Assembly (NCBI GenBank): GCA_963812375.1 | Contig: CAWEUW010000006.1 | Coordinates: 30,837-94,836 of the forward strand | Source of the DNA: an uncultured Acidimicrobiia bacterium | GTDB taxonomy: Bacteria; Actinomycetota; Acidimicrobiia; Spongiisociales; UBA5794 | Reading direction: 5' to 3' | Length of the DNA: 64,000 bases | Shown here: one piece after another, positions 4,785-60,829 of the stretch | Layout of the letters: every line of letters starts with the position of its first letter | How positions within the stretch are numbered: the stretch's first letter is position 1 | Notes under the pieces: model-generated | Database searches by the model: none | What the model saw: the letters and a program-made list of their open reading frames with translations, nothing else | Told to the model about the DNA's origin: nothing | Program-made: the position numbers and the translations under genes

Positions 4785-5138
4785 ATGTTGGCGGTGGTGG
4801 CGACCTTCGTCGTGGCGGTGGCGATCGTCCATCTCTTCATGTTCCTCTACGGCCAGGCGGTGGTGCGATCCGCTCTCGACGAGGCGGTGCGGACCGGCTC
4901 GAGGGTCGATGGCGGCCCGGCACTGTGCCTGCAAACCGCAACCGAGGTGCGGGACGACCTGCTGGGCGGACAGCTCGGCGACGGCGTCACCTTCCGATGC
5001 GTGGCCCGGCAGGGCCCGGCCGGTCCCCGGCTGGTCGCCTCGGCGGTGGCCAGGTTCCGCAGCCCCATGCCCGGCGTGCCAACGCTGACCCTGAACCTCT
5101 CGGCGACGGCGATCCAGGAGGTCCCGGCATCGCCATGA
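4785..5138 (+). CDS. TadE-like pseudopilin/pilus assembly protein
   Basis: In-frame codons upstream of ATG 4785 read SDCERGEIGIGIMLAVVATFVVAV, a TadE-type N-terminus, but contain no ATG or GTG. The true start is probably upstream, either CTG 4734 or a frame break from GTG/ATG 4727/4730. Confidence 0.6.
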   Translation: MLAVVATFVVAVAIVHLFMFLYGQAVVRSALDEAVRTGSRVDGGPALCLQTATEVRDDLLGGQLGDGVTFRCVARQGPAGPRLVASAVARFRSPMPGVPTLTLNLSATAIQEVPASP

Positions 5139-5578
5139 GCCTGGAGCATGTCAAGGGGGTCGTCCGGAGCGAACGGGGAGAAGCGTCGGCGCTCGAGATG
5201 ATGCTCGTCATCGGATTCCTGCTCCTGCCCACTCTCGTTGGCCTCGCCCAGATCCCGCGCTGGATCGACGCCCGATCGACCGGGGAGCTGGCAGCCCAGG
5301 AGGCGGCGAGGCAGGTGGCTCTGTCCACGGACCTCGAGGTGGGGGTGGCCGCCGCCGACGCCGTCGCCCGGCAGATCGTGGTCAACCACGGTTGGGATGA
5401 AGAGGCGTACCGCGGCGTGCGGGTCACGGGCTCGGTGGCTTCCGGTGGCTCGGTGACCGCATCGGTGACCATGCGAGTGCCGGCGATCGTGGTGCCGCTG
5501 GTCGGCAACGTCGGGGGCGGCTTCTGGCGTACCTGGTCGCACACCGAGGTCGTCGACAGCTACCGGGAGGACGGGTGA
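5135..5578 (+). CDS. TadE-like pilus assembly protein
   Basis: ATG 5135 overlaps the previous stop (ATGA). The N-terminus SERGEASALEMMLVIGFLLLP matches the TadE family signature. Confidence 0.65.
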   Translation: MSLEHVKGVVRSERGEASALEMMLVIGFLLLPTLVGLAQIPRWIDARSTGELAAQEAARQVALSTDLEVGVAAADAVARQIVVNHGWDEEAYRGVRVTGSVASGGSVTASVTMRVPAIVVPLVGNVGGGFWRTWSHTEVVDSYREDG

Positions 5579-15183: not shown

Positions 15184-16107
15184 ATGGTCGCCACCCGGTC
15201 ATCGGAGACCACCGACACCGTGGTCCGGCGTCTCGCCACCGGGGTGCTGGTCTTCACCGTGCTGGTCATCCTGGGCGGGTCGGTGGTGCGGGCCACCGAG
15301 TCGGGCGCGGGCTGCGGGGACCAGTGGCCCCGTTGCGAGGGCCACATCATCCCCTGGTCGGCGGAGGGCGCCACCACGATCGAGTTCGCCCACCGGGCGT
15401 CGACCGCCATCCTCGGGATCCTGCTCGTCGCCCTCGTCGTCACCGTGGTCCGACGCACCGAGCGCGGGGCGCCGATCCGCCGTGCCCTCGCCTGGGCGGG
15501 GGCCTTCTTCGTCGCCGAGGTCGCCATCGGGGCGCTGCTGGTGCTCTTCGGCTGGGTCGACCAGGACGCCTCGATCGGGCGGGTGGTGGCCATGACCGTC
15601 CACCTGGCCAATACCTTCCTGCTGCTGGCCGCGCTCACCTTGGTGGTGTGGTTGGCGCGTGGGGGTGCCCCGCCGCGGGTCGACCTGGGGCGGACCGCCG
15701 ACCGGCTGCTCCTGGCCGGTGCCGTCGTCCTCCTCGTGGTCGCCGCTTCCGGCGCCCTCAACGCGCTGGCCGACACGCTGTTCCCTGCCGATGAGTCGTC
15801 AGGCTCCGGCCACTTCCTCGCCGACCTCCGGGTGCTGCACCCGATGATCGCCATCGTCGGAGGTGTGGCGGTGGTGCTCCTGTCCCGGGCCAGGGCGCTC
15901 GCCGGCGCCGCCGCCGAGCCGTGGCGACGCGCCATCGCGGTCATCGTGGCGATCCAGTTCGCCATGGGTGTCGTCAACATCGCCCTGCTGACGCCGGTGG
16001 AGACCCAGGTGCTGCACCTGCTCCTGGCCGATACGCTGTGGATCGTGTGGATCGTGTTCGGAGCCTCGGTGATCGCCGCCGAGCAGCTCGAGGCCCAGAA
16101 GTCATGA
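15184..16107 (+). CDS. ctaA: Heme A synthase (COX15/CtaA)
   Basis: Polytopic membrane protein with GCGDQWPRCEG and conserved His residues (FAHRAS, VHLAN, VLHPM, HLLLAD). ATG 15184 lies inside ORF 15061..16107. Confidence 0.85.
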   Translation: MVATRSSETTDTVVRRLATGVLVFTVLVILGGSVVRATESGAGCGDQWPRCEGHIIPWSAEGATTIEFAHRASTAILGILLVALVVTVVRRTERGAPIRRALAWAGAFFVAEVAIGALLVLFGWVDQDASIGRVVAMTVHLANTFLLLAALTLVVWLARGGAPPRVDLGRTADRLLLAGAVVLLVVAASGALNALADTLFPADESSGSGHFLADLRVLHPMIAIVGGVAVVLLSRARALAGAAAEPWRRAIAVIVAIQFAMGVVNIALLTPVETQVLHLLLADTLWIVWIVFGASVIAAEQLEAQKS

Positions 16108-16175
16108 GTGTGAGGGTTCGCCGGAGGCGGAGACTCGGCGGTTGGGGCTGGGGACCCCGAGAGCCATGAGTGAAG
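16108..16175 (+). repeat. Short copy of the dispersed 5'-leader repeat also found at 59405-59606
   Basis: GAGGGTTCGCCGGAGGCGGAGACTCGGCGGTTGGGGCTGGGGACCCCGAGAGCCATGAGTGAAG aligns at about 80% to the reverse complement of the 91-bp unit at 59425-59515, minus an internal deletion of about 25 nt. It fills the ctaA-ctaB spacer. Confidence 0.55.
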
Positions 16176-17068
16176 CCAGGATCACCGATCCTCGTGCCGT
16201 GGTCACCGCCGGTGACCGCGTCCGCGCCTACGTCGAGCTGACCAAGCCCCGCATCATCGAACTCCTCCTCATCACCACGGTGCCGGCGATGATCGTCGCC
16301 GCCGAGGGCTGGCCCGGGCTCGGGCTGATCGTGGCCACCCTGGTGGGCGGGACGCTGTCGGCCGCCGGGGCCAACACCCTCAACCAGGTGCTCGACCGTG
16401 ACATCGACCGGGTGATGAGGCGCACCGCCTCCCGGCCGTTGCCCACCGATCGGGTGACGCCGGGTCACGCCATGGTCTTCGGCGTGGCGTTGGGCATCGC
16501 CGGGTTCGCCTGGCTGTGGGCGACCACCAACCTGCTCGCCGCCCTCCTGTCCACCGCCGGGCTGGCGTTCTACGTGCTGGTCTACACCATGTGGCTGAAG
16601 CGGACCACCACCCAGAACATCGTGATCGGGGGAGCCGCCGGCGCCGTGCCCCCTCTCGTGGGCTGGGCGGCGGTGACCGGTTCGCTGGCCCTCCCCGCCT
16701 GGTTCATGTTCGCCATCGTCTTCTACTGGACCCCGCCGCACTTCTGGGCGCTGTCGCTCCGCTACCGCGACGACTACGCCGCCGCAGGGGTCCCGATGAT
16801 GCCGGTCGTGGTCGGCGTCGAACGAACCCTCGACCACATCGTCCGCTACAGCATGCTGGTCGCCGGAGTCTCCCTGCTCCCGTACACGGTGGGTGTCGTC
16901 GGGCTCTTCTATCTGTCGGTGGCGGTGGTGCTCGGGATTGCCCTGGTGGTCGCCGCGCTCCGCCTGCGCCGGCTGCCGTCCGAGGCCATGAGGTTCTTCG
17001 GCTGGACCAACCTCTACCTCGCCGGGATCTTCCTGGCGATGGCGGTCGATGTCCTCGTCTGGGCGTGA
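16166..17068 (+). CDS. ctaB: Protoheme IX farnesyltransferase (heme O synthase)
   Basis: UbiA family: NQVLDRDIDRVMRRTASRPLP and YWTPPHFWALS. ATG 16166, with alternative TTG 16142. Confidence 0.9.
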   Translation: MSEARITDPRAVVTAGDRVRAYVELTKPRIIELLLITTVPAMIVAAEGWPGLGLIVATLVGGTLSAAGANTLNQVLDRDIDRVMRRTASRPLPTDRVTPGHAMVFGVALGIAGFAWLWATTNLLAALLSTAGLAFYVLVYTMWLKRTTTQNIVIGGAAGAVPPLVGWAAVTGSLALPAWFMFAIVFYWTPPHFWALSLRYRDDYAAAGVPMMPVVVGVERTLDHIVRYSMLVAGVSLLPYTVGVVGLFYLSVAVVLGIALVVAALRLRRLPSEAMRFFGWTNLYLAGIFLAMAVDVLVWA

Positions 17069-46600: not shown

Positions 46601-48232
46601 TCACCCGGAGGGTGTCGGGCCACCATCGCAGGGGTCGGGCGAGTAGATCCCGAGCACCGACCCGTCCGGCTCGGCTCGAGGAGACGGGCCCCCACAGGAG
46701 GGTGACCCCGTCGGAGCGCACCAGGATGAAGTGGAGGGAGCCGTCGATCTCCTCGTAGGAGATGTCGAACTCCGGATAGACCGACTCGAGGTGCTCGATC
46801 GTGTCGCCCAGCGACAGTTCGGAGAGGGTCGACAGCCCTGCGGTGGGGTGGGCGGCCGGCTCGTTGTCCAGGCGGTACCCGGCGAGGGCCCCGTCCTCGG
46901 GGGTGCCGGTGAACAGGACGGTGAAGGGGCCCCAGGTGGCGGTGAACCCGGGTTCGCCCGGGCACAGGCCGAAACCGCCGTCGTCGACGGTGTTGGCCGA
47001 TTCGGGCTGCCCCAGGGTCGCCACCAGGCGGCCCAGCCCGTCCGGGTCGCCGAACTCGATCGGGCTCACCGCGAAGGCGCCGAGTCGCAGGTCGCTGATG
47101 TCCACCGGGTTGCCCACCTCGGGGAACGGACCGGTGAGCAGGGTGGGATCGACTGTGGTCGTGGTGGGCTCGGGCCTCGTAGTGGTCGGCTCGGGGAGGG
47201 TGGTGCTCGGACCGGCGACAGCCTGCGACGTATTCACGGCTGGTGTCGTGGTGGTGCCGGCCACTTCCGCCGGGTCGTCCCGGGTGATCAGGGTGAGTGC
47301 CCCGAACCAGCCGGCGATCAGTACGGCGACCACGCCGGCGATGAGCAGCCGCTGCCCGGTGCGGCCCCGGCGGGGTGCGGGCGGAGGATCACCGACGCCG
47401 CCGTCGAGGTGGAGCGAGGCGTCGTCGATCGGATGGGCGGGTGGGGTCGGGGAGACCGGCCGCTCGCTCGCCGGCCGGTCGTTGGGGGGCCGGTCGCCGG
47501 GTCGGTCGTTCGGCGGGCCGACGTCGCCGGGGCGTGACGAGGGTCGGGTCGCCGCCGCCGCCGCAGCCGCAGCAGCAGCAGCAGCGACGGCGATGGTTGC
47601 ACTTCCGTGGCATCGGCGTCCACCGTCGCCGGTTCTCCGGGAGTCGCCTGGTCGTCCTCGTCCTCGTGCTCGGCGGGCGGAGGCTCGGCGGGAGCCTCGG
47701 GGACGGTCGACTCGCTGCAGCGCAGCCACGGTGGTGCCGCCACTTCGGCGGCATCTGCGTAGCCATCGCCGGTTCGCCTGGGCCGCCGGGTCGTCCTCGA
47801 CCTCGTCTCGTGCTCGGCAGACGGCTCGGCGGGAGCCTCGGGGACGGTCGCTGCGGTTGCAGCTGCGGCGGCCACCGCCGGCGGTGCCTCCACTTCGGCG
47901 GCATCTGCGTCCACTCGCCGGTTCGCCTTGGCCGGCCGGGGGTCGTCCTCCTGCTCGGCAGGCGAAGGCTCGGCGGGAGCCTCGGGGACGGTCGATGCGG
48001 CGGCAGCCGCCACGGGGACTGCCGCCGCCGCCACGGGGGCATCTGCCGAGTCATCGGTGCCGGTCGGCGTGGGAGGAGCTGGCGCCGGCTCTGGATCCTG
48101 GCCCGACGATGGTCGGGTCGTCGAGGTGACGACATGGCTGTCGATCCAACCCCGCTTGCAGGTCGGGCAGCGGGGCACGTCGAGCGGCCGCGGCGTCCCG
48201 CAGAACACACAGGGCGTGAGGTCGGCCGCCAT
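46601..48232 (-). CDS. Zinc-ribbon / acidic-repeat / poly-Ala / TM protein, paralog B of the 43568 gene
   Basis: ATG 48232 MAADLTPCVFCGTPRPLDVPRCPTCK, three repeats of about 47 aa, an A(12) run, TM LLIAGVVAVLIAGWFGAL. The C-domain aligns to paralog A (WGPF, GYRLD, LGD, LLWGP, GIYSPD.C). Breaks near 47650 and 46650. TGA complement at 46601-46603. Confidence 0.6.
47645..48060 (-). repeat. Three in-frame tandem repeats of 141-144 bp inside the paralog B gene
   Basis: GGCTCGGCGGGAGCCTCGGGGACGGTCG recurs at 47682, 47823 and 47967. CACTTCGGCGGCATCTGCGT recurs at 47741 and 47891. The encoded unit is STVPEAPAEP..AE.ED....DADAAEV. Confidence 0.85.
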
Positions 48233-58018: not shown

Positions 58019-59368
58019 TCAGCCGTCGGCGGCGTCAGGCGTCGGCCAGGTGATGACCAGGACGGTGACGTCGGAGTCGGTCGGGTTGGAGACCTCGCTG
58101 TCCGGGCCGAGGTCGATCACGGCGCCGGGCGCCAGTCGGGCCCTTTCGGACAGTGCCGTGCCCTCGACCACCACGCCGACGCCACCTTCGAAGCCGGCGG
58201 TGGACCCGGCGCGGAGAGTGTGAGCCGTGACCACCCCGTCCCCGATACGGGCCAGGATCTCGGACGTGCCCCACGGCTGGGCGGAGGTCGGCCCCTGGTC
58301 GGCTTCGATGCGGCGCCGCCGCCGGAGGTGTTCGACCAGCTGCTTGACGTCCTCGGCGCGGTCCTTGGCCGCCACCAGCACCGCATCCGGAGTCGTCACC
58401 GCCACCACGTCGGACAATCCGACCACGGCGAGTAGCCCCCCGTCGGCTCGCAGGTAGCTGCCGTCGACATCCTGGGCCACCACGTCGCCGACGATGACGT
58501 TGCCGCTGGCGTCCTGTATCGCCACGTCCATCAGCGACGCCCATGACCCCACGTCGCTCCATCCGGCGTCGAGCGGGACCACCACCGCCGACCGGGTGCG
58601 CTCCATGACGGCGTAGTCGATCGAGATCGACGGGGAGCGCGAGAACGCATCGCCGTCGAGGGCCAGTGACCCGTCCTCTTCGGTCACTGCCGCCGCCATG
58701 GCCGCCGAGGCCGCGGCGGCGACATCGGGCTCGAAGCGGGCCAGCTCGTCGAGGTAGCGAACGGCGGTGAACATGAACATGCCGCTGTTCCACAGGTGCT
58801 CGCCGTCGGTGACGAACCGTTCGGCGTCGGCGAGTTCCGGCTTCTCGACGAACTCGGCAACCGGGCTCAACCCGGTGGACCCCGGCGCCACCCGGATGTA
58901 GCCGTACCCCGTCGCCGGATGGGTGGGGACGACACCGAACGTGACCAGGGCACCTGTCAGCGCCGCCTCGGCTCCGGCGGCCACCGCCTCGGCGAAGGCG
59001 ACATGGTCGCGGAGCACGTGGTCGGCGGGCATCACGAGCATCACCGAACCCGGGTCGATGGCGAGGGCGGCAACGGCCACCGCGGGCGCGGTGTTGCGGC
59101 CCACCGGTTCGATGATCACCCGCCCGTCGCCATGGCCTGCCGCCTCCATCTCGTGGCGGCACGACGACGCCTGCACCTCGCTGCACACCACAACGGCCGA
59201 CCGATGGCCGGGGATGCCGGCCACCCGGTCGAGTGTGGCGCGCAGCATCGTGTGGTCGTCGACCAGGTTGAGGAGCTGTTTCGGGGTGTCCGTCCGCGAG
59301 GCGGGCCACAATCGGGTTCCCGAGCCACCGGAGAGGATCACCGGGACGATGACGGGGCCGTCGTGCAC
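58019..59368 (-). CDS. manC: Mannose-1-phosphate guanylyltransferase with C-terminal cupin (ManC/CpsB type)
   Basis: VILSGGSGTRLWP, GRNTAPAV, MPADH, EKP, LWNSGMFMF, and a cupin-like tail. The start is set at GTG 59366-59368 (VHDGPVIV). The raw ORF extends upstream through the 91-bp repeats, which I consider non-coding. Confidence 0.8.
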   Translation of the reverse strand: MHDGPVIVPVILSGGSGTRLWPASRTDTPKQLLNLVDDHTMLRATLDRVAGIPGHRSAVVVCSEVQASSCRHEMEAAGHGDGRVIIEPVGRNTAPAVAVAALAIDPGSVMLVMPADHVLRDHVAFAEAVAAGAEAALTGALVTFGVVPTHPATGYGYIRVAPGSTGLSPVAEFVEKPELADAERFVTDGEHLWNSGMFMFTAVRYLDELARFEPDVAAAASAAMAAAVTEEDGSLALDGDAFSRSPSISIDYAVMERTRSAVVVPLDAGWSDVGSWASLMDVAIQDASGNVIVGDVVAQDVDGSYLRADGGLLAVVGLSDVVAVTTPDAVLVAAKDRAEDVKQLVEHLRRRRRIEADQGPTSAQPWGTSEILARIGDGVVTAHTLRAGSTAGFEGGVGVVVEGTALSERARLAPGAVIDLGPDSEVSNPTDSDVTVLVITWPTPDAADG

Positions 59369-59404
59369 CCGGACAATGTAACGGGCCAGGACCGGCCCCC
59401 TAGT

Positions 59405-59606
59405 GGTGGCCTCTGCGCTCTGTTCACATGGCTCTTCGGCTGACGCCTCATCGCTGTGCGATGGGGGACCCCCAACCCCCATCGCCCGAGCCTCCGCCTG
59501 CGGCGTAGCCTCTGTCACATGGCTCTTCGGCTGACGCCTCATCGCGGTGCGATGGGGGACCCCCAACCCCCATCGCCGAGTCTCCGCCTGGCGGCGTAGC
59601 CTCTGT
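59405..59606. repeat. Tandem 91-bp repeat (two full copies plus a partial), each with a 10-bp G/C hairpin
   Basis: Copy 1 spans 59425-59515 and copy 2 spans 59516-59606, differing by two substitutions and two 1-nt indels. Hairpins GCGATGGGGG-N8-CCCCCATCGC lie at 59458-59485 and 59549-59576. A partial unit lies at 59405-59424. Confidence 0.9.
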
Positions 59607-60829
59607 GCTCAACCCTGCTGCCGTCCGCTCCCGCTTCCCCGCCCTGGCCCGGACTCTCGGCGGCGTCCCCGTGGTCTATGCCGACGGTCCCGGCGGCACC
59701 CAGGTGGTGGACACGGCGATCGAGGCCGTCGCCGGGTTCATGGCCGGTGGCGGGTCCAACCTCGGGGGCCCGTTCGTCACTAGCGAGGAGACCCAGGCAG
59801 TGGTCGATTCCGCCCGAGCCGCCGCCGCCGACCTGTTCGGAGCGGAGCGGCCCGACGAGATCGTCTTCGGGCAGAACATGACGTCACTCACGCTCGCCCT
59901 GGGGAGGGCACTGGCCCGCACCTGGCGACCCGGCGACGAGATCATCTGCACCACTCTCGATCACGACGCCAACGTCTCGTCGTGGATGCAGGCGGCCGCC
60001 GAAGCAGATGCCACCGTCCGCCTCGTCGACTTCGACCCTCGAGACGGCCGGCTCGACCCCGAGGCGGTAGCGGCCGCCCTCACCGACCGCACCCGGCTGG
60101 TGGCGGTCACTCACGCCTCCAACGCCATCGGCACCGTGGTCGACGTCGCCTCCGTGGTCGAGGCCGCCCACTCGGTGGGGGCCCTCGCCTTCGTCGATGC
60201 GGTGCACTACGCCCCCCATGGGCTCATCGACGTCGTCACCACCGGTTGCGACTTCCTCGCCGCGTCGGCGTACAAGTTCTTCGGGCCACACACCGGGATC
60301 ATGTACGGGCGGGCAGAGCTGCTGGCCGGGCTCGACGCGGTCGAAGATCAGGCCGGCCCCGAGCGAGGCCCCGGGCAAGTGGGAGAGCGGCACCCAGAGC
60401 TTCGAGAGCCTGGCCGGGGTAGCCGCCGCCGTCGACTACCTCGCCTCATTGGGCGAGGGGGTTGACCGGCGCTCCCGGATCCGCTCCGCCATGGGCCTCA
60501 TCGGCACGCACGAGGCGGGGCTTTCCCGCCGCTTCCTCGACGGGGTCGTTCGGCAGCCGTCGGTGACCGTGCACGGGGTGCCGGACGTCGAGGGCCGCAC
60601 CCCCACCTTCGCCGTCGCGGTGGACGGGAAGCACCCCCGCCGGGTCGCCGAGAGACTCGGCCGGGCCGGGGTGTTCGTGTGGGACGGCCACTACTACGCC
60701 CTCGAGGTGATGCGCCGCCTCGGCGTGCTCGACACCGGCGGCCTGGTGCGGATCGGGTTCGTCCACTACAACACGCTCGAAGAGGTCGACCGGGTGGTCG
60801 ACGCCTTGGACGCGCTTCAGGCCAGATAG
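59605..60829 (+). CDS. Class V aminotransferase / cysteine-desulfurase-like PLP enzyme
   Basis: GTG 59605. VTHASNAIGTV and SAYKFFGPH (PLP-Lys region). The C-half is in ORF 60197..60829 after a break near 60340. Confidence 0.8.

Follow-up and report, generated by a model that had tools for sequence, protein, structure and literature searches.

Mycobacterial interspersed repetitive units (MIRUs) are mobile repeats that insert at start codons and carry an internal open reading frame (ORF) coupled to the target gene, with minimal impact of the insertion (PMC12548453, summarising Supply et al. 1997). Among repeats that enter gene starts and imitate the signals displaced there, they are the textbook case, and their mobility is still unexplained. 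The window analysed here, the whole of a 64,000-nt stretch from an uncultured Acidimicrobiia bacterium (contig CAWEUW010000006.1, positions 30,837 to 94,836), contains two head-to-tail repeat units in the spacer between manC and a divergent class-V aminotransferase gene. These units belong to a dispersed family of non-coding repeats about 91 nt long, which is probably a non-autonomous element of the MIRU kind, mobile or self-propagating in some other way, that preserves leaderless promoters; the family would follow the same strategy one level up, using the -10 box and leaderless start rather than the stop/start overlap.

As described for MIRUs, which are non-coding units of about 40-100 bp dispersed between the genes of an actinobacterium, often in short head-to-tail arrays, the copy number of the present units varies at orthologous loci, they are found at gene starts in the orientation of the downstream gene, and they include a small internal ORF. 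In both cases the idea is that the element mimics the signals displaced by it, which would keep the cost of insertion low, and no transposase is known. However, the MIRU ORF overlaps the flanking start and stop codons (-4 nt coupling), whereas here the stop codon of the ORF (TAG) precedes the next start by 5-12 nt and does not overlap it, and the predicted mimicry is at the level of transcription (-10 box and leaderless spacing), one step upstream. The host, belonging to the Acidimicrobiia, and the presence of three covarying hairpins are further differences. As the overlapping stop/start arrangement is missing and the comparison is one of arrangement and behaviour, the family is a variant of the MIRU kind and was not filed as a member.

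Orientation-specific insertion into actinobacterial gene-initiation signals, without inverted repeats or target duplications, is also a property of the IS900/IS901-type elements of Mycobacterium avium, members of the IS110 family of insertion sequences (IS), which enter between the ribosome-binding site and the start codon in one orientation. These are, however, autonomous 1.4-kb elements with a DEDD transposase.

A dispersed family with empty orthologous sites

The window belongs to a metagenome-assembled genome (MAG) of 3.03 Mb in 12 contigs, 65% complete (G000), which was compared with four further genomes of the genus (G001-G004, of which G004 is a single contig) and with G005 and G024 from two other genera of the same family. 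Collection of the units in G000 by BLAST and an iterated nhmmer profile gave at least 56 units at 44 loci, beside host genes unrelated to one another. Nine of the loci hold arrays, each with 2-4 units and a repeat period near 91 nt; every array runs head-to-tail on one strand, none being an inverted doublet. The family is present in all five genomes of the genus (at least 48 BLAST matches in G004) and patchy elsewhere. The consensus of G003 and G004 is almost the same as that of G000, the version in G001 and G002 is about 85% identical, and those in G005 and G024 are more diverged. The pair in the window, which the preliminary description had treated as a feature of the manC/aminotransferase spacer, is thus neither unique nor especially alike.

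Tandem Repeats Finder detected a single array in the spacer (59418-59606, period 91, 2.1 copies, 94% matches). The 91-bp tandem with a 10-bp central hairpin, reported as units 59425-59515 and 59516-59606, is real: the only differences between the two are two substitutions and two 1-nt indels, and the 28-nt hairpin GCGATGGGGG-ACCCCCAA-CCCCCATCGC (59458-59485 and 59549-59576) had no match in shuffles of the window. The biologically meaningful phase is 59420-59511 plus 59512-59602, in which a linker, CTGTNNNC, is followed by ATGG...GCGTAGCCT. The features of the spacer, in this phase, are as follows.

59366-59368, minus strand: true GTG start of manC, aligned with the ATG of G001; translation VHDGPVIVPVILSGGSGTRLWP; Pfam NTP_transferase and ManC beta-helix.
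59375-59380, minus strand: -10-like box of manC, TACATT, outside the repeat and 6 nt before the GTG (leaderless geometry).
59414-59419, plus strand: remnant of the native aminotransferase -10 box, TGCGCT, placed by empty-site alignment.
59420-59511, plus strand: repeat unit 1, 92 nt (nhmmer family model), with linker CTGTTCAC, core ATGGCTCTTCG-(H1)-TCATCGC, hairpins H2 and H3, and 3' TAGCCT at 59506-59511.
59512-59602, plus strand: repeat unit 2, 91 nt (nhmmer family model), with 3' TAGCCT at 59597-59602, 2 nt before the GTG.
59605-59607, plus strand: GTG start of the class-V aminotransferase, aligned with ortholog starts (ATG in G004 and G003, GTG in G001).

The orthologous spacer is empty in three sister species, measuring 45-48 nt in G004, G003 and G001 as compared with 226 nt in the window.

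G004, empty: ...CCC-TACGCT-CCCGCCA-ATG-CTC...
G001, empty: ...GG-TAGCCT-CCGGCG-GTG-CTC...
Window, filled: ...TGCGCT-(CTGTTCAC ATGG...TAGCCT)(CTGTCAC ATGG...TAGCCT)-CT-GTG-CTC...

The native aminotransferase -10 hexamer is TGCGCT in the window, TACGCT in G004 and G003 and TAGCCT in G001, followed in the sisters by 6-7 nt and the start codon, and the alignment places both window units exactly between this -10-like hexamer and the aminotransferase start. The 20-nt partial unit said to precede the array holds only in part, since some of it is the native -10 region, orthologous to TACGCT of G004, which merely resembles the 3' end of a unit. The last unit does abut, and help to form, the aminotransferase GTG as had been stated.

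On the other side of the spacer, manC has its own promoter-like box outside the repeat, because TACATT and 6 nt precede the GTG at 59368. This box, the alignment of the GTG with the G001 start and the short sister spacers confirm that an N-terminal extension of ManC through the repeats is spurious; the repeats are no part of ManC and, judged by its predicted signals, manC is a bystander. Recognition of the family averts such false extensions, as well as false "riboswitch/leader" calls. Ancestrally, manC and the aminotransferase gene appear to have had back-to-back leaderless promoters about 30 bp apart.

High identity of the two units had been read as a sign of recent duplication or concerted evolution. 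A recent local duplication is not supported by it. Unit 2 has its closest relative on another contig (C8:107259, 98.8% identity) and shares only 95.3% identity with unit 1, with a family mean of 90.6% and a 95th percentile of 96.5%, so that the "near-perfect duplication" is ordinary family similarity and the two units may be separate arrivals. A cis element specific to manC and the aminotransferase gene (insulator, RNA stability or protein-binding site) that arose by recent local duplication would suit the strong hairpins between two divergent genes, but it is very improbable given the empty spacers, the same unit at 44 loci beside unrelated genes, the manC -10 box outside the repeat, the nearest relative of unit 2 elsewhere in the genome and the lack of any Rfam family match. 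Least probable of all is an assembly artefact in which the repeat was mis-joined or mis-counted. The family is highly repetitive, the MAG is 65% complete and at least one nearby gene has a single-base frameshift, but many loci have arrays of this period, as do the independently assembled genomes of four other species, four positions distinguish the two units, and both flanks align cleanly to the sister genomes. Overall, the preliminary interpretation was partly supported.

Copy number differed at orthologous loci of G000 and G004, being 4 versus 1 at C8:439354, 2 versus 1 at C10:27974, and 1 versus 2 at C9:596548, C11:9493, C2:31892 and C8:107259, and presence/absence differences between related genomes were found at six loci or more (at least six). 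At C8:158178, G000 has a full unit and G004 a 28-nt mini-unit, CATGGCTCTTCGCCTGACGGCGTAGCCT, the expected remnant of a deletion between the 11-nt direct repeats CGCCTGACGGC. In some arrays the units have private variants in common, which points to local duplication as their probable origin, and the units C8:439354 and C8:439516 are 100% identical.

Insertion at predicted leaderless promoters

In Mycobacterium tuberculosis, 73% of transcription start sites have a TANNNT whose centre is 7-12 bp upstream, a quarter of the genes are leaderless, and newly arisen TANNNT motifs generate new transcription start sites (PMC3898074). Among 2207 G000 genes, called with a crude home-made codon-usage caller, the 3' end of TANNNT lies 6, 7, 8 and 9 nt before the start codon of 94, 48, 31 and 27 genes, respectively, versus about 2-10 at other spacings. 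This peak agrees with what has been published as characteristic of promoters and leaderless mRNAs in actinobacteria (PMC3898074), and TAGCCT is the commonest hexamer at 6-9 nt before G000 start codons. Pairs of empty and filled sites at other loci show the same position of the units with respect to such hexamers.

C1:51484: empty in G004, TAGGGT-CGCGTC-GTG; filled in G000, TAGGGT-CGCTAC-ATGG..unit..TAGCCT-CGATTC-GTG.
C3:53059: empty in G004, TAGCAT-CGACCCC-ATG; filled in G000, TAGCAT-(CTGTTC ATGG..TAGCCT)-CGACCC-ATG.
C11:79968: empty in G004, TAGCGT-CGCGGG-ATG; filled in G000, TACCGT-(CTGTCTCC ATGG..GTCGCCT)-CAGCGC-ATG.
C8:272774: empty in G003, TAGCCT-CGCCATC-GTG; filled in G000, unit, mini-unit and TAGCCT-CTGCCAG-ATG.

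The left hexamer is native, as it varies and matches the empty site, while the right one is brought by the element, as it is nearly always TAGCCT. Insertion was directly after TANNNT in 4-5 of about 8 informative pairs, and the junctions vary by a few nucleotides.

The position is also evident from counts. A well-scoring ORF on the same strand begins within 12 nt past the 3' end of the element in 12 of 35 cases in G000 (p = 1.6e-8) and 14 of 29 in G004 (p = 4e-12), with a background of 4.4% at random intergenic positions, and the offset is most often 6-8 nt. A native TANNNT occurs 5-9 nt before the ATG of the first unit in 10 of 37 cases in G000 (p about 5e-14) and 7 of 27 in G004 (p about 4e-10), the background being 0.66%. 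Inside arrays, TAGCCT is 7-8 nt before the ATG of the next unit; at 26 loci of G000 and G004 together it is 5-9 nt before a gene start, the spacing of a leaderless promoter, while the window GTG is at only 2 nt. Sister lineages lacking the -10 mimic serve as a natural control and were not found at gene starts: units end with GGAGCCT in G001 and GGGGCCT in G024, thus without TANNNT and without TAG, and there a gene start within 12 nt after the element was seen at 0 of 9 and 0 of 2 loci, and TANNNT before the first ATG at 0 of 10 and 0 of 7, respectively. Because the unit is dispersed, typically lies between a -10 box and a start, and brings a replacement -10, it appears to be a genome-wide passenger element and not a regulator specific to manC or the aminotransferase gene.

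A probable sequence of events can be outlined for the lineage of G000, G003 and G004. The unit consists of the conserved 5' core ATGGCTCTTCG-(3-bp hairpin)-TCATCGC, a 10-bp central hairpin, a 3' hairpin of 7-11 bp and ends forming imperfect inverted repeats, and would land immediately 3' of the TANNNT -10 hexamer of a leaderless gene. Its first mimic is an ATG 5-9 nt past the native -10 box, opening a 26-codon mini-ORF, and its second the 3'-terminal TAGCCT, 6-8 nt before the ATG of the next unit or the start of the host gene. Since both mimics are carried along, the -10-N6-8-start geometry would be restored and the insertion tolerated, and arrays could then grow by re-insertion behind an existing TAGCCT end together with local duplication or deletion. 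In the window, two units entered between the native aminotransferase -10 and the start codon. The former now reads TGCGCT, without the key A, and just 2 nt separate the last TAGCCT from the GTG. The aminotransferase would therefore most likely be expressed from a transcript beginning at the ATG of unit 2 (7 nt after the TAGCCT of unit 1), the ribosome completing the mini-ORF and re-initiating 5 nt past its stop. If the TAGCCT end is an active promoter, the units are natural portable promoters for leaderless genes and a source of 5'-end and expression variation among closely related soil Acidimicrobiia.

Several observations weigh against this account. Roughly every second locus is away from gene starts (C8:14110 marks a convergent gene end, and a tRNA gene is followed by one array). 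In the window, the GTG is too near the TAGCCT for the latter to act as its leaderless -10 box. The gene-start enrichment rests on the crude gene calls, and in a long-read assembly the differences in C-run length among units could be sequencing errors. Boundaries are not uniform either, with about 8 native nucleotides lost in the window and the C1:51484 junction 3 nt past the hexamer. Target-site duplications are inconsistent, possibly TCAG at C8:14110 and TCG at C1:51484, with none at C3:53059, C11:79968 or the window, and no transposase or other mobilising enzyme was found among the families tested (Y1/RAYT, ISL3 and IS110). Owing to the variable boundaries and duplications, illegitimate recombination fits as well as transposition.

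Spread without a transposase, by illegitimate or microhomology recombination or template switching between TANNNT...ATG junctions and subsequent tandem slippage, has to be considered in this context and is unlikely, yet not negligible. It agrees with the failure to find a mobilising enzyme, with left-flank hexamers that resemble the unit's own 3' end, with the junctions varying by a few nucleotides and the shortfall in the window, and with the mini-unit formed by deletion between direct repeats. Six nucleotides of homology are, however, very short for repeated events between loci, some insertions are away from promoters (the convergent gene end at C8:14110 and copies just past a tRNA), the patchy multi-copy spread in distant families and Myxococcota looks like that of a horizontally moving entity, and strict conservation of three hairpins is left unexplained.

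Hairpins and mini-ORF

Each window unit contains three hairpins, belonging to neither strand in particular, and one mini-ORF.

59438-59447 (unit 1) and 59529-59538 (unit 2), no strand: H1, in unit 1 GGC-TGAC-GCC, with a G-C to C-G flip and 100% paired in 40 sequences.
59458-59485 (unit 1) and 59549-59576 (unit 2), no strand: H2, the central hairpin, 10-bp stem with C-rich loop, recognised by covariation and folds.
59488-59512 (unit 1) and 59578-59603 (unit 2), no strand: H3, in unit 2 GAGTCTCCGCC-TGGC-GGCGTAGCCTC, recognised by covariation.
59428-59508, plus strand: mini-ORF 1, 26 codons, MALRLTPHRCAMGDPQPPSPEPPPAA and stop, with ATG 8 nt past the native -10 remnant.
59519-59599, plus strand: mini-ORF 2, 26 codons, MALRLTPHRGAMGDPQPPSPSLRLAA and stop, with ATG 7 nt past the unit 1 TAGCCT and TAG 5 nt before the aminotransferase GTG.

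Covariation was assessed in 40 aligned units from six genomes for the pairs of H1 (3 bp), H2 (10 bp) and H3 (up to 11 bp). Overall, 88.4% of the cells were paired, versus 42-49% when partners were slid by 1-3 columns, and changes on both sides were found in 14 of the 24 pairs (85 cells), including 5 of 10 in H2 and 8 of 11 in H3. None of 500 shuffles was as high for the paired fraction or the total of two-sided changes. Thus, for H2, GCGATGGGGG/CCCCCATCGC is replaced by GCGGTTGGGG/CCCCAACCGC in G001, GTCGGCcGGGG/CCCCaGCCGAC in G024 and GTTGCcTGGG/CCCAtGCAAC in G005, and for H3, CTCCGCC/GGCGTAG is replaced by ATGCGCC/GGCGCAT in G002, TGCGCC/GGCGCA in G005, CCCCGCC/GGCGGGG in G024 and, at one G004 locus, GGTTCCGGC/GCCGTAACC. 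The strong hairpins of the preliminary description are therefore real and evolutionarily maintained across genera. Helix cells comprise 832 Watson-Crick pairs, 12 G.U and 24 A.C (9 of the latter from a misaligned bulge, leaving about 15), with no strand favoured. Nearly pure Watson-Crick pairing without strand bias fits hairpins at the DNA level or a two-strand constraint and does not indicate an RNA-specific role, and nothing points to the insulator, RNA-stability or protein-binding function that had been suggested for the two genes.

Folding of single units gave stable structures for both strands, whether treated as RNA (-41.9 and -43.0 kcal/mol; z = -2.8 and -2.1) or as DNA (z = -2.5 and -3.0). 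The unit ends are imperfect inverted repeats, paired in the minimum free energy fold (GGCT-CTT-CGCC-TGAC-GGC versus GGCT-A-CGCC-GTCA-GGC, 11 of 14 positions), and are largely the two small hairpins themselves. These hairpins may serve propagation of the element. No T runs typical of an intrinsic terminator follow the stems: on the plus strand H2 is followed by CGAGTCTCC and H3 by CTGT, and on the minus strand H2 is followed by ACCGCGA.

The T shared by TAG and TAGCCT is a C.T mismatch inside the H3 stem. At this pair (72-86) CG occurs 14 times, GC 8 times and CT 15 times, and the T is taken as derived because the mismatch stands where other lineages have C-G or G-C. This T costs one base pair of H3 and creates both the -10 consensus and the mini-ORF stop, and it is the best evidence that the sub-family of G000, G003 and G004 may have adapted to, or been filtered for, promoter-compatible insertion.

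In these three genomes the mini-ORF runs from ATG to TAG over 26 codons (MALRLTPHRGAMGDPQPPSPSLRLTA), and in unit 1 of the window its frame is kept by two compensating 1-nt indels. It is intact in about 60% of the full units and frameshifted in the rest, some shifts lying in C-runs and possibly being sequencing errors, and no conserved stop or frame was found in G001, G024 and G005. ATGG is conserved in most lineages, and the mini-ORF ATG is where a leaderless start would lie, so the mini-ORF may plausibly be translated as a by-product. Unlike the three hairpins, which covary across genera, the mini-ORF of 26 codons and the TAGCCT box are lineage-specific. A protein-coding mini-gene as a conserved feature was rejected, being broken in about 40% of units and without a common frame or stop in G001, G024 and G005.

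The same features bear on whether the units are regulatory cassettes selected by the host, acting as portable leaderless promoters whose upstream mini-ORF delivers ribosomes or gates expression and whose arrays tune it. TAGCCT and ATG have the geometry of leaderless promoters, the derived T has become fixed in most units despite the loss of a stem pair, compensating indels keep the 26-codon frame (unit 1 of the window, C2:31892, C11:168779, C11:216505 and G004 L066), and ribosome delivery by upstream ORFs is an accepted mechanism (PMC12548453). Such a role is nonetheless a minority explanation, and an unlikely one: the mini-ORF is intact in just some 60% of full units and lacks a conserved stop or frame in the three genomes above, presence and copy number vary among sister species at the same genes, including empty sites with an intact native promoter, and the host genes are mutually unrelated. 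A MIRU-like passenger that leaves promoters functional is preferred.

Two further structures were tried and rejected. A hammerhead ribozyme on the minus strand, where GAUGAG-stem-CGAAG resembles its core, has no stem III partner and no Rfam match, and core positions C3, U4 and A15.1 are wrong by inspection. An intramolecular triplex (G5-A-C5-AG-C5) was rejected on geometry from the rules of strand orientation; the covarying GCGAT/ATCGC extension requires pairing of the G-run with the second C-run.

Search for a mobilising enzyme and known families

An element related to repetitive extragenic palindromes (REPs) and their doublets (REPINs), or derived from IS200/IS605 as the palindrome-associated transposable elements (PATEs) are, would be moved as single-stranded DNA by an HUH (Y1) transposase inserting 3' of a short target. 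The subterminal hairpins, their near-pure Watson-Crick covariation without strand bias, insertion 3' of TANNNT without consistent target duplication, and an element 3' end equal to the target, which would explain the head-to-tail arrays, all fit such a mechanism. Nevertheless, the Y1 family, which includes the REP-associated tyrosine transposases (RAYTs) (PF01797), had no match in the seven carriers G000-G005 and G024, the single-contig G004 among them, while the same search was positive in 6 of 14 control genomes, and REPIN inverted doublets are not the arrangement found here. This explanation is consequently improbable. The units share with REP/REPIN-RAYT systems the form of short GC-rich hairpin repeats between genes, in tens of copies and with stems kept by compensatory changes, and differ from them also in preferring the 5' side of genes, at the promoter/start junction, rather than gene 3' ends. 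With IS200/IS605 and PATEs they have in common the subterminal hairpins and possibly insertion 3' of a short specific sequence without target duplication; the defining Y1 transposase is absent from the searched carriers.

Miniature inverted-repeat transposable elements (MITEs) are likewise small, non-autonomous and multi-copy, with insertion polymorphism between species, and the imperfect inverted repeats at the unit ends may correspond to their terminal repeats, but consistent target-site duplication is lacking here, tandem arrays are unusual for MITEs, and neither ISL3 nor IS110 provided a parent IS with matching ends. ISL3 (PF01610), tried because the unit end reads GGCTCTTC, was found only in G002 and G024, in copies without GGCTCTTC ends. 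IS110 transposases (PF01548) are absent from G000, G003, G004 and G024, which sets the family apart from IS900/IS901, and the IS110 loci found elsewhere have no adjoining core.

All 4227 Rfam families were scanned, in E-value mode on the spacer and in gathering mode on nine related loci, and none reached its gathering threshold. The highest-placed candidates, chrB-a (17.9 bits against 43.9) and DUF805b (14.4 bits against 35.6), were rejected as far below threshold and resting on one shared 17-mer. The chrB-a RNA (RF03078) is an alphaproteobacterial 5'-UTR (untranslated region) motif (PMC5737381); it has 17 nt in common with the 5' core on its minus strand (GAGGCGaCAGCCgAAG ... CAUG), but only this stretch aligns, and phylum and gene context are different. 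The searchable literature yielded no paper on repeats of Acidimicrobiia and none containing the core sequence verbatim.

Wider distribution of the core

A 25-nt core pattern was scanned over 401 sampled Acidimicrobiia genomes (178 genera) and found in 12 genomes of 12 genera, while the reversed pattern, used as control, gave 0 everywhere. Counts, several of them in distant families, were 39 in G000, 28 in G375, 21 in G024, 20 in G340, 8 in G249 (as a 34-nt tandem) and 3 in G006 (with a 91-nt period). A 26-nt form, which permitted non-complementary middle bases in H1, matched more than 116 stretches in species-representative genomes, the majority from Acidimicrobiia. Polyangiaceae, Myxococcota and "Deltaproteobacteria" MAGs have arrays in which the core is joined to other partner modules (38, 78 and 85 nt), the full three-hairpin layout is present in an "Acidobacteria" MAG that is possibly mis-binned, and one Mycobacterium isolate has a single core copy. 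H1 is complementary in 136 of 140 core matches, and three of the four exceptions had been set aside beforehand as chance or coding matches. Those in Longimicrobiales, Microbacterium, Nitrospira and Paraburkholderia were rejected as coding or chance, three with non-complementary H1; those of the first three taxa fall in coding-like sequence.

It is possible, and suggested here tentatively, that the 26-nt core ATGGCTCTTCG-(GCC-NNNN-GGC)-TCATCGC marks a hitherto undescribed superfamily of non-autonomous, modular repeats that spans phyla, from Acidimicrobiia and other Actinomycetota to Myxococcota (periods of 34-38, 78, 85 and 91 nt, set by the partner modules). Such repeats might be moved by machinery targeting the melted -10/start region and, in this genus, might have acquired a -10 box and a leaderless mini-ORF of their own. 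If so, the element of this genus would be a naturally occurring portable leaderless promoter that rewires gene 5' ends without killing genes. The core in common with Myxococcota repeats is a concrete handle for finding the mobilising machinery.

At C5:1041776-1042075 of G249, from a distant Acidimicrobiia family, at least eight copies of the core alone form the 34-nt-period tandem array, so the core can be repeated without H2 and H3. Two Microthrixaceae MAGs have a single 26-nt core on the minus strand (L168, 5648-5673, and L190, 7965-7990), conserved between the species and some 30 nt upstream of a PII/GlnB-like gene whose product begins MKQITAVIKP. Core arrays begin 5-9 nt past the 3' end of a tRNA, in tRNA orientation, at C7:422970-423147 of G000 and at about 5090-5235 of the Polyangiaceae sequence L160.

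Further repeats and neighbouring genes

A second trace of the family is present in the window.

16117-16160 (C6:46953-46996), minus strand: truncated, internally deleted family copy in the ctaA-ctaB spacer (nhmmer, model positions 36-81; extended match about 16100-16180).

It reads CATGGCTCT|CGGGGTCCCCAGCCCCAACCGCCGAGTCTCCGCCTCCGGCGAACCCTCACACTC-ATG, again ending a few nucleotides before an ATG.

In G001 (L088, L091, L092, L095 and L096), G002 (L035) and G024 (L105), an extra conserved hairpin, GAGCGAGCGC-GGATAG-GCGCTCGCTC, plus TTGCGCYGTTGTTG, precedes many units, so that the family is modular and longer in these genomes. In G000 the unit C7:103938 is flanked (C7:103890-104070) by direct copies of a different 23-nt hairpin repeat, TTGTCAGYCNCCGCTGACCGCCTGC, which is also in tandem at the empty site in G003 and G004 (L114 and L115). 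The G000 loci C2:31892 and C3:39051, as well as C2:20631 and C3:55016, have near-identical flanks and downstream genes (for example VKQLLVMR...), which suggests a duplicated segment or redundant MAG contigs.

The aminotransferase gene (59605-60829) is split into two frames by one extra C (60335-60355, near 60345; GCGGTCGAAG versus GCGGT-GAAG in G004), and the G004 ortholog is an intact 407-aa ORF. The 1-nt insertion is either an assembly error or gene decay, leaving a pseudogene downstream of the repeat insertion. Elsewhere in the window, a 141-144-bp tandem repeat at 47600-48007 (2.8 copies, 77-83% matches) probably represents coding repeats, and short GC-rich microsatellites were found at 47550-47585.

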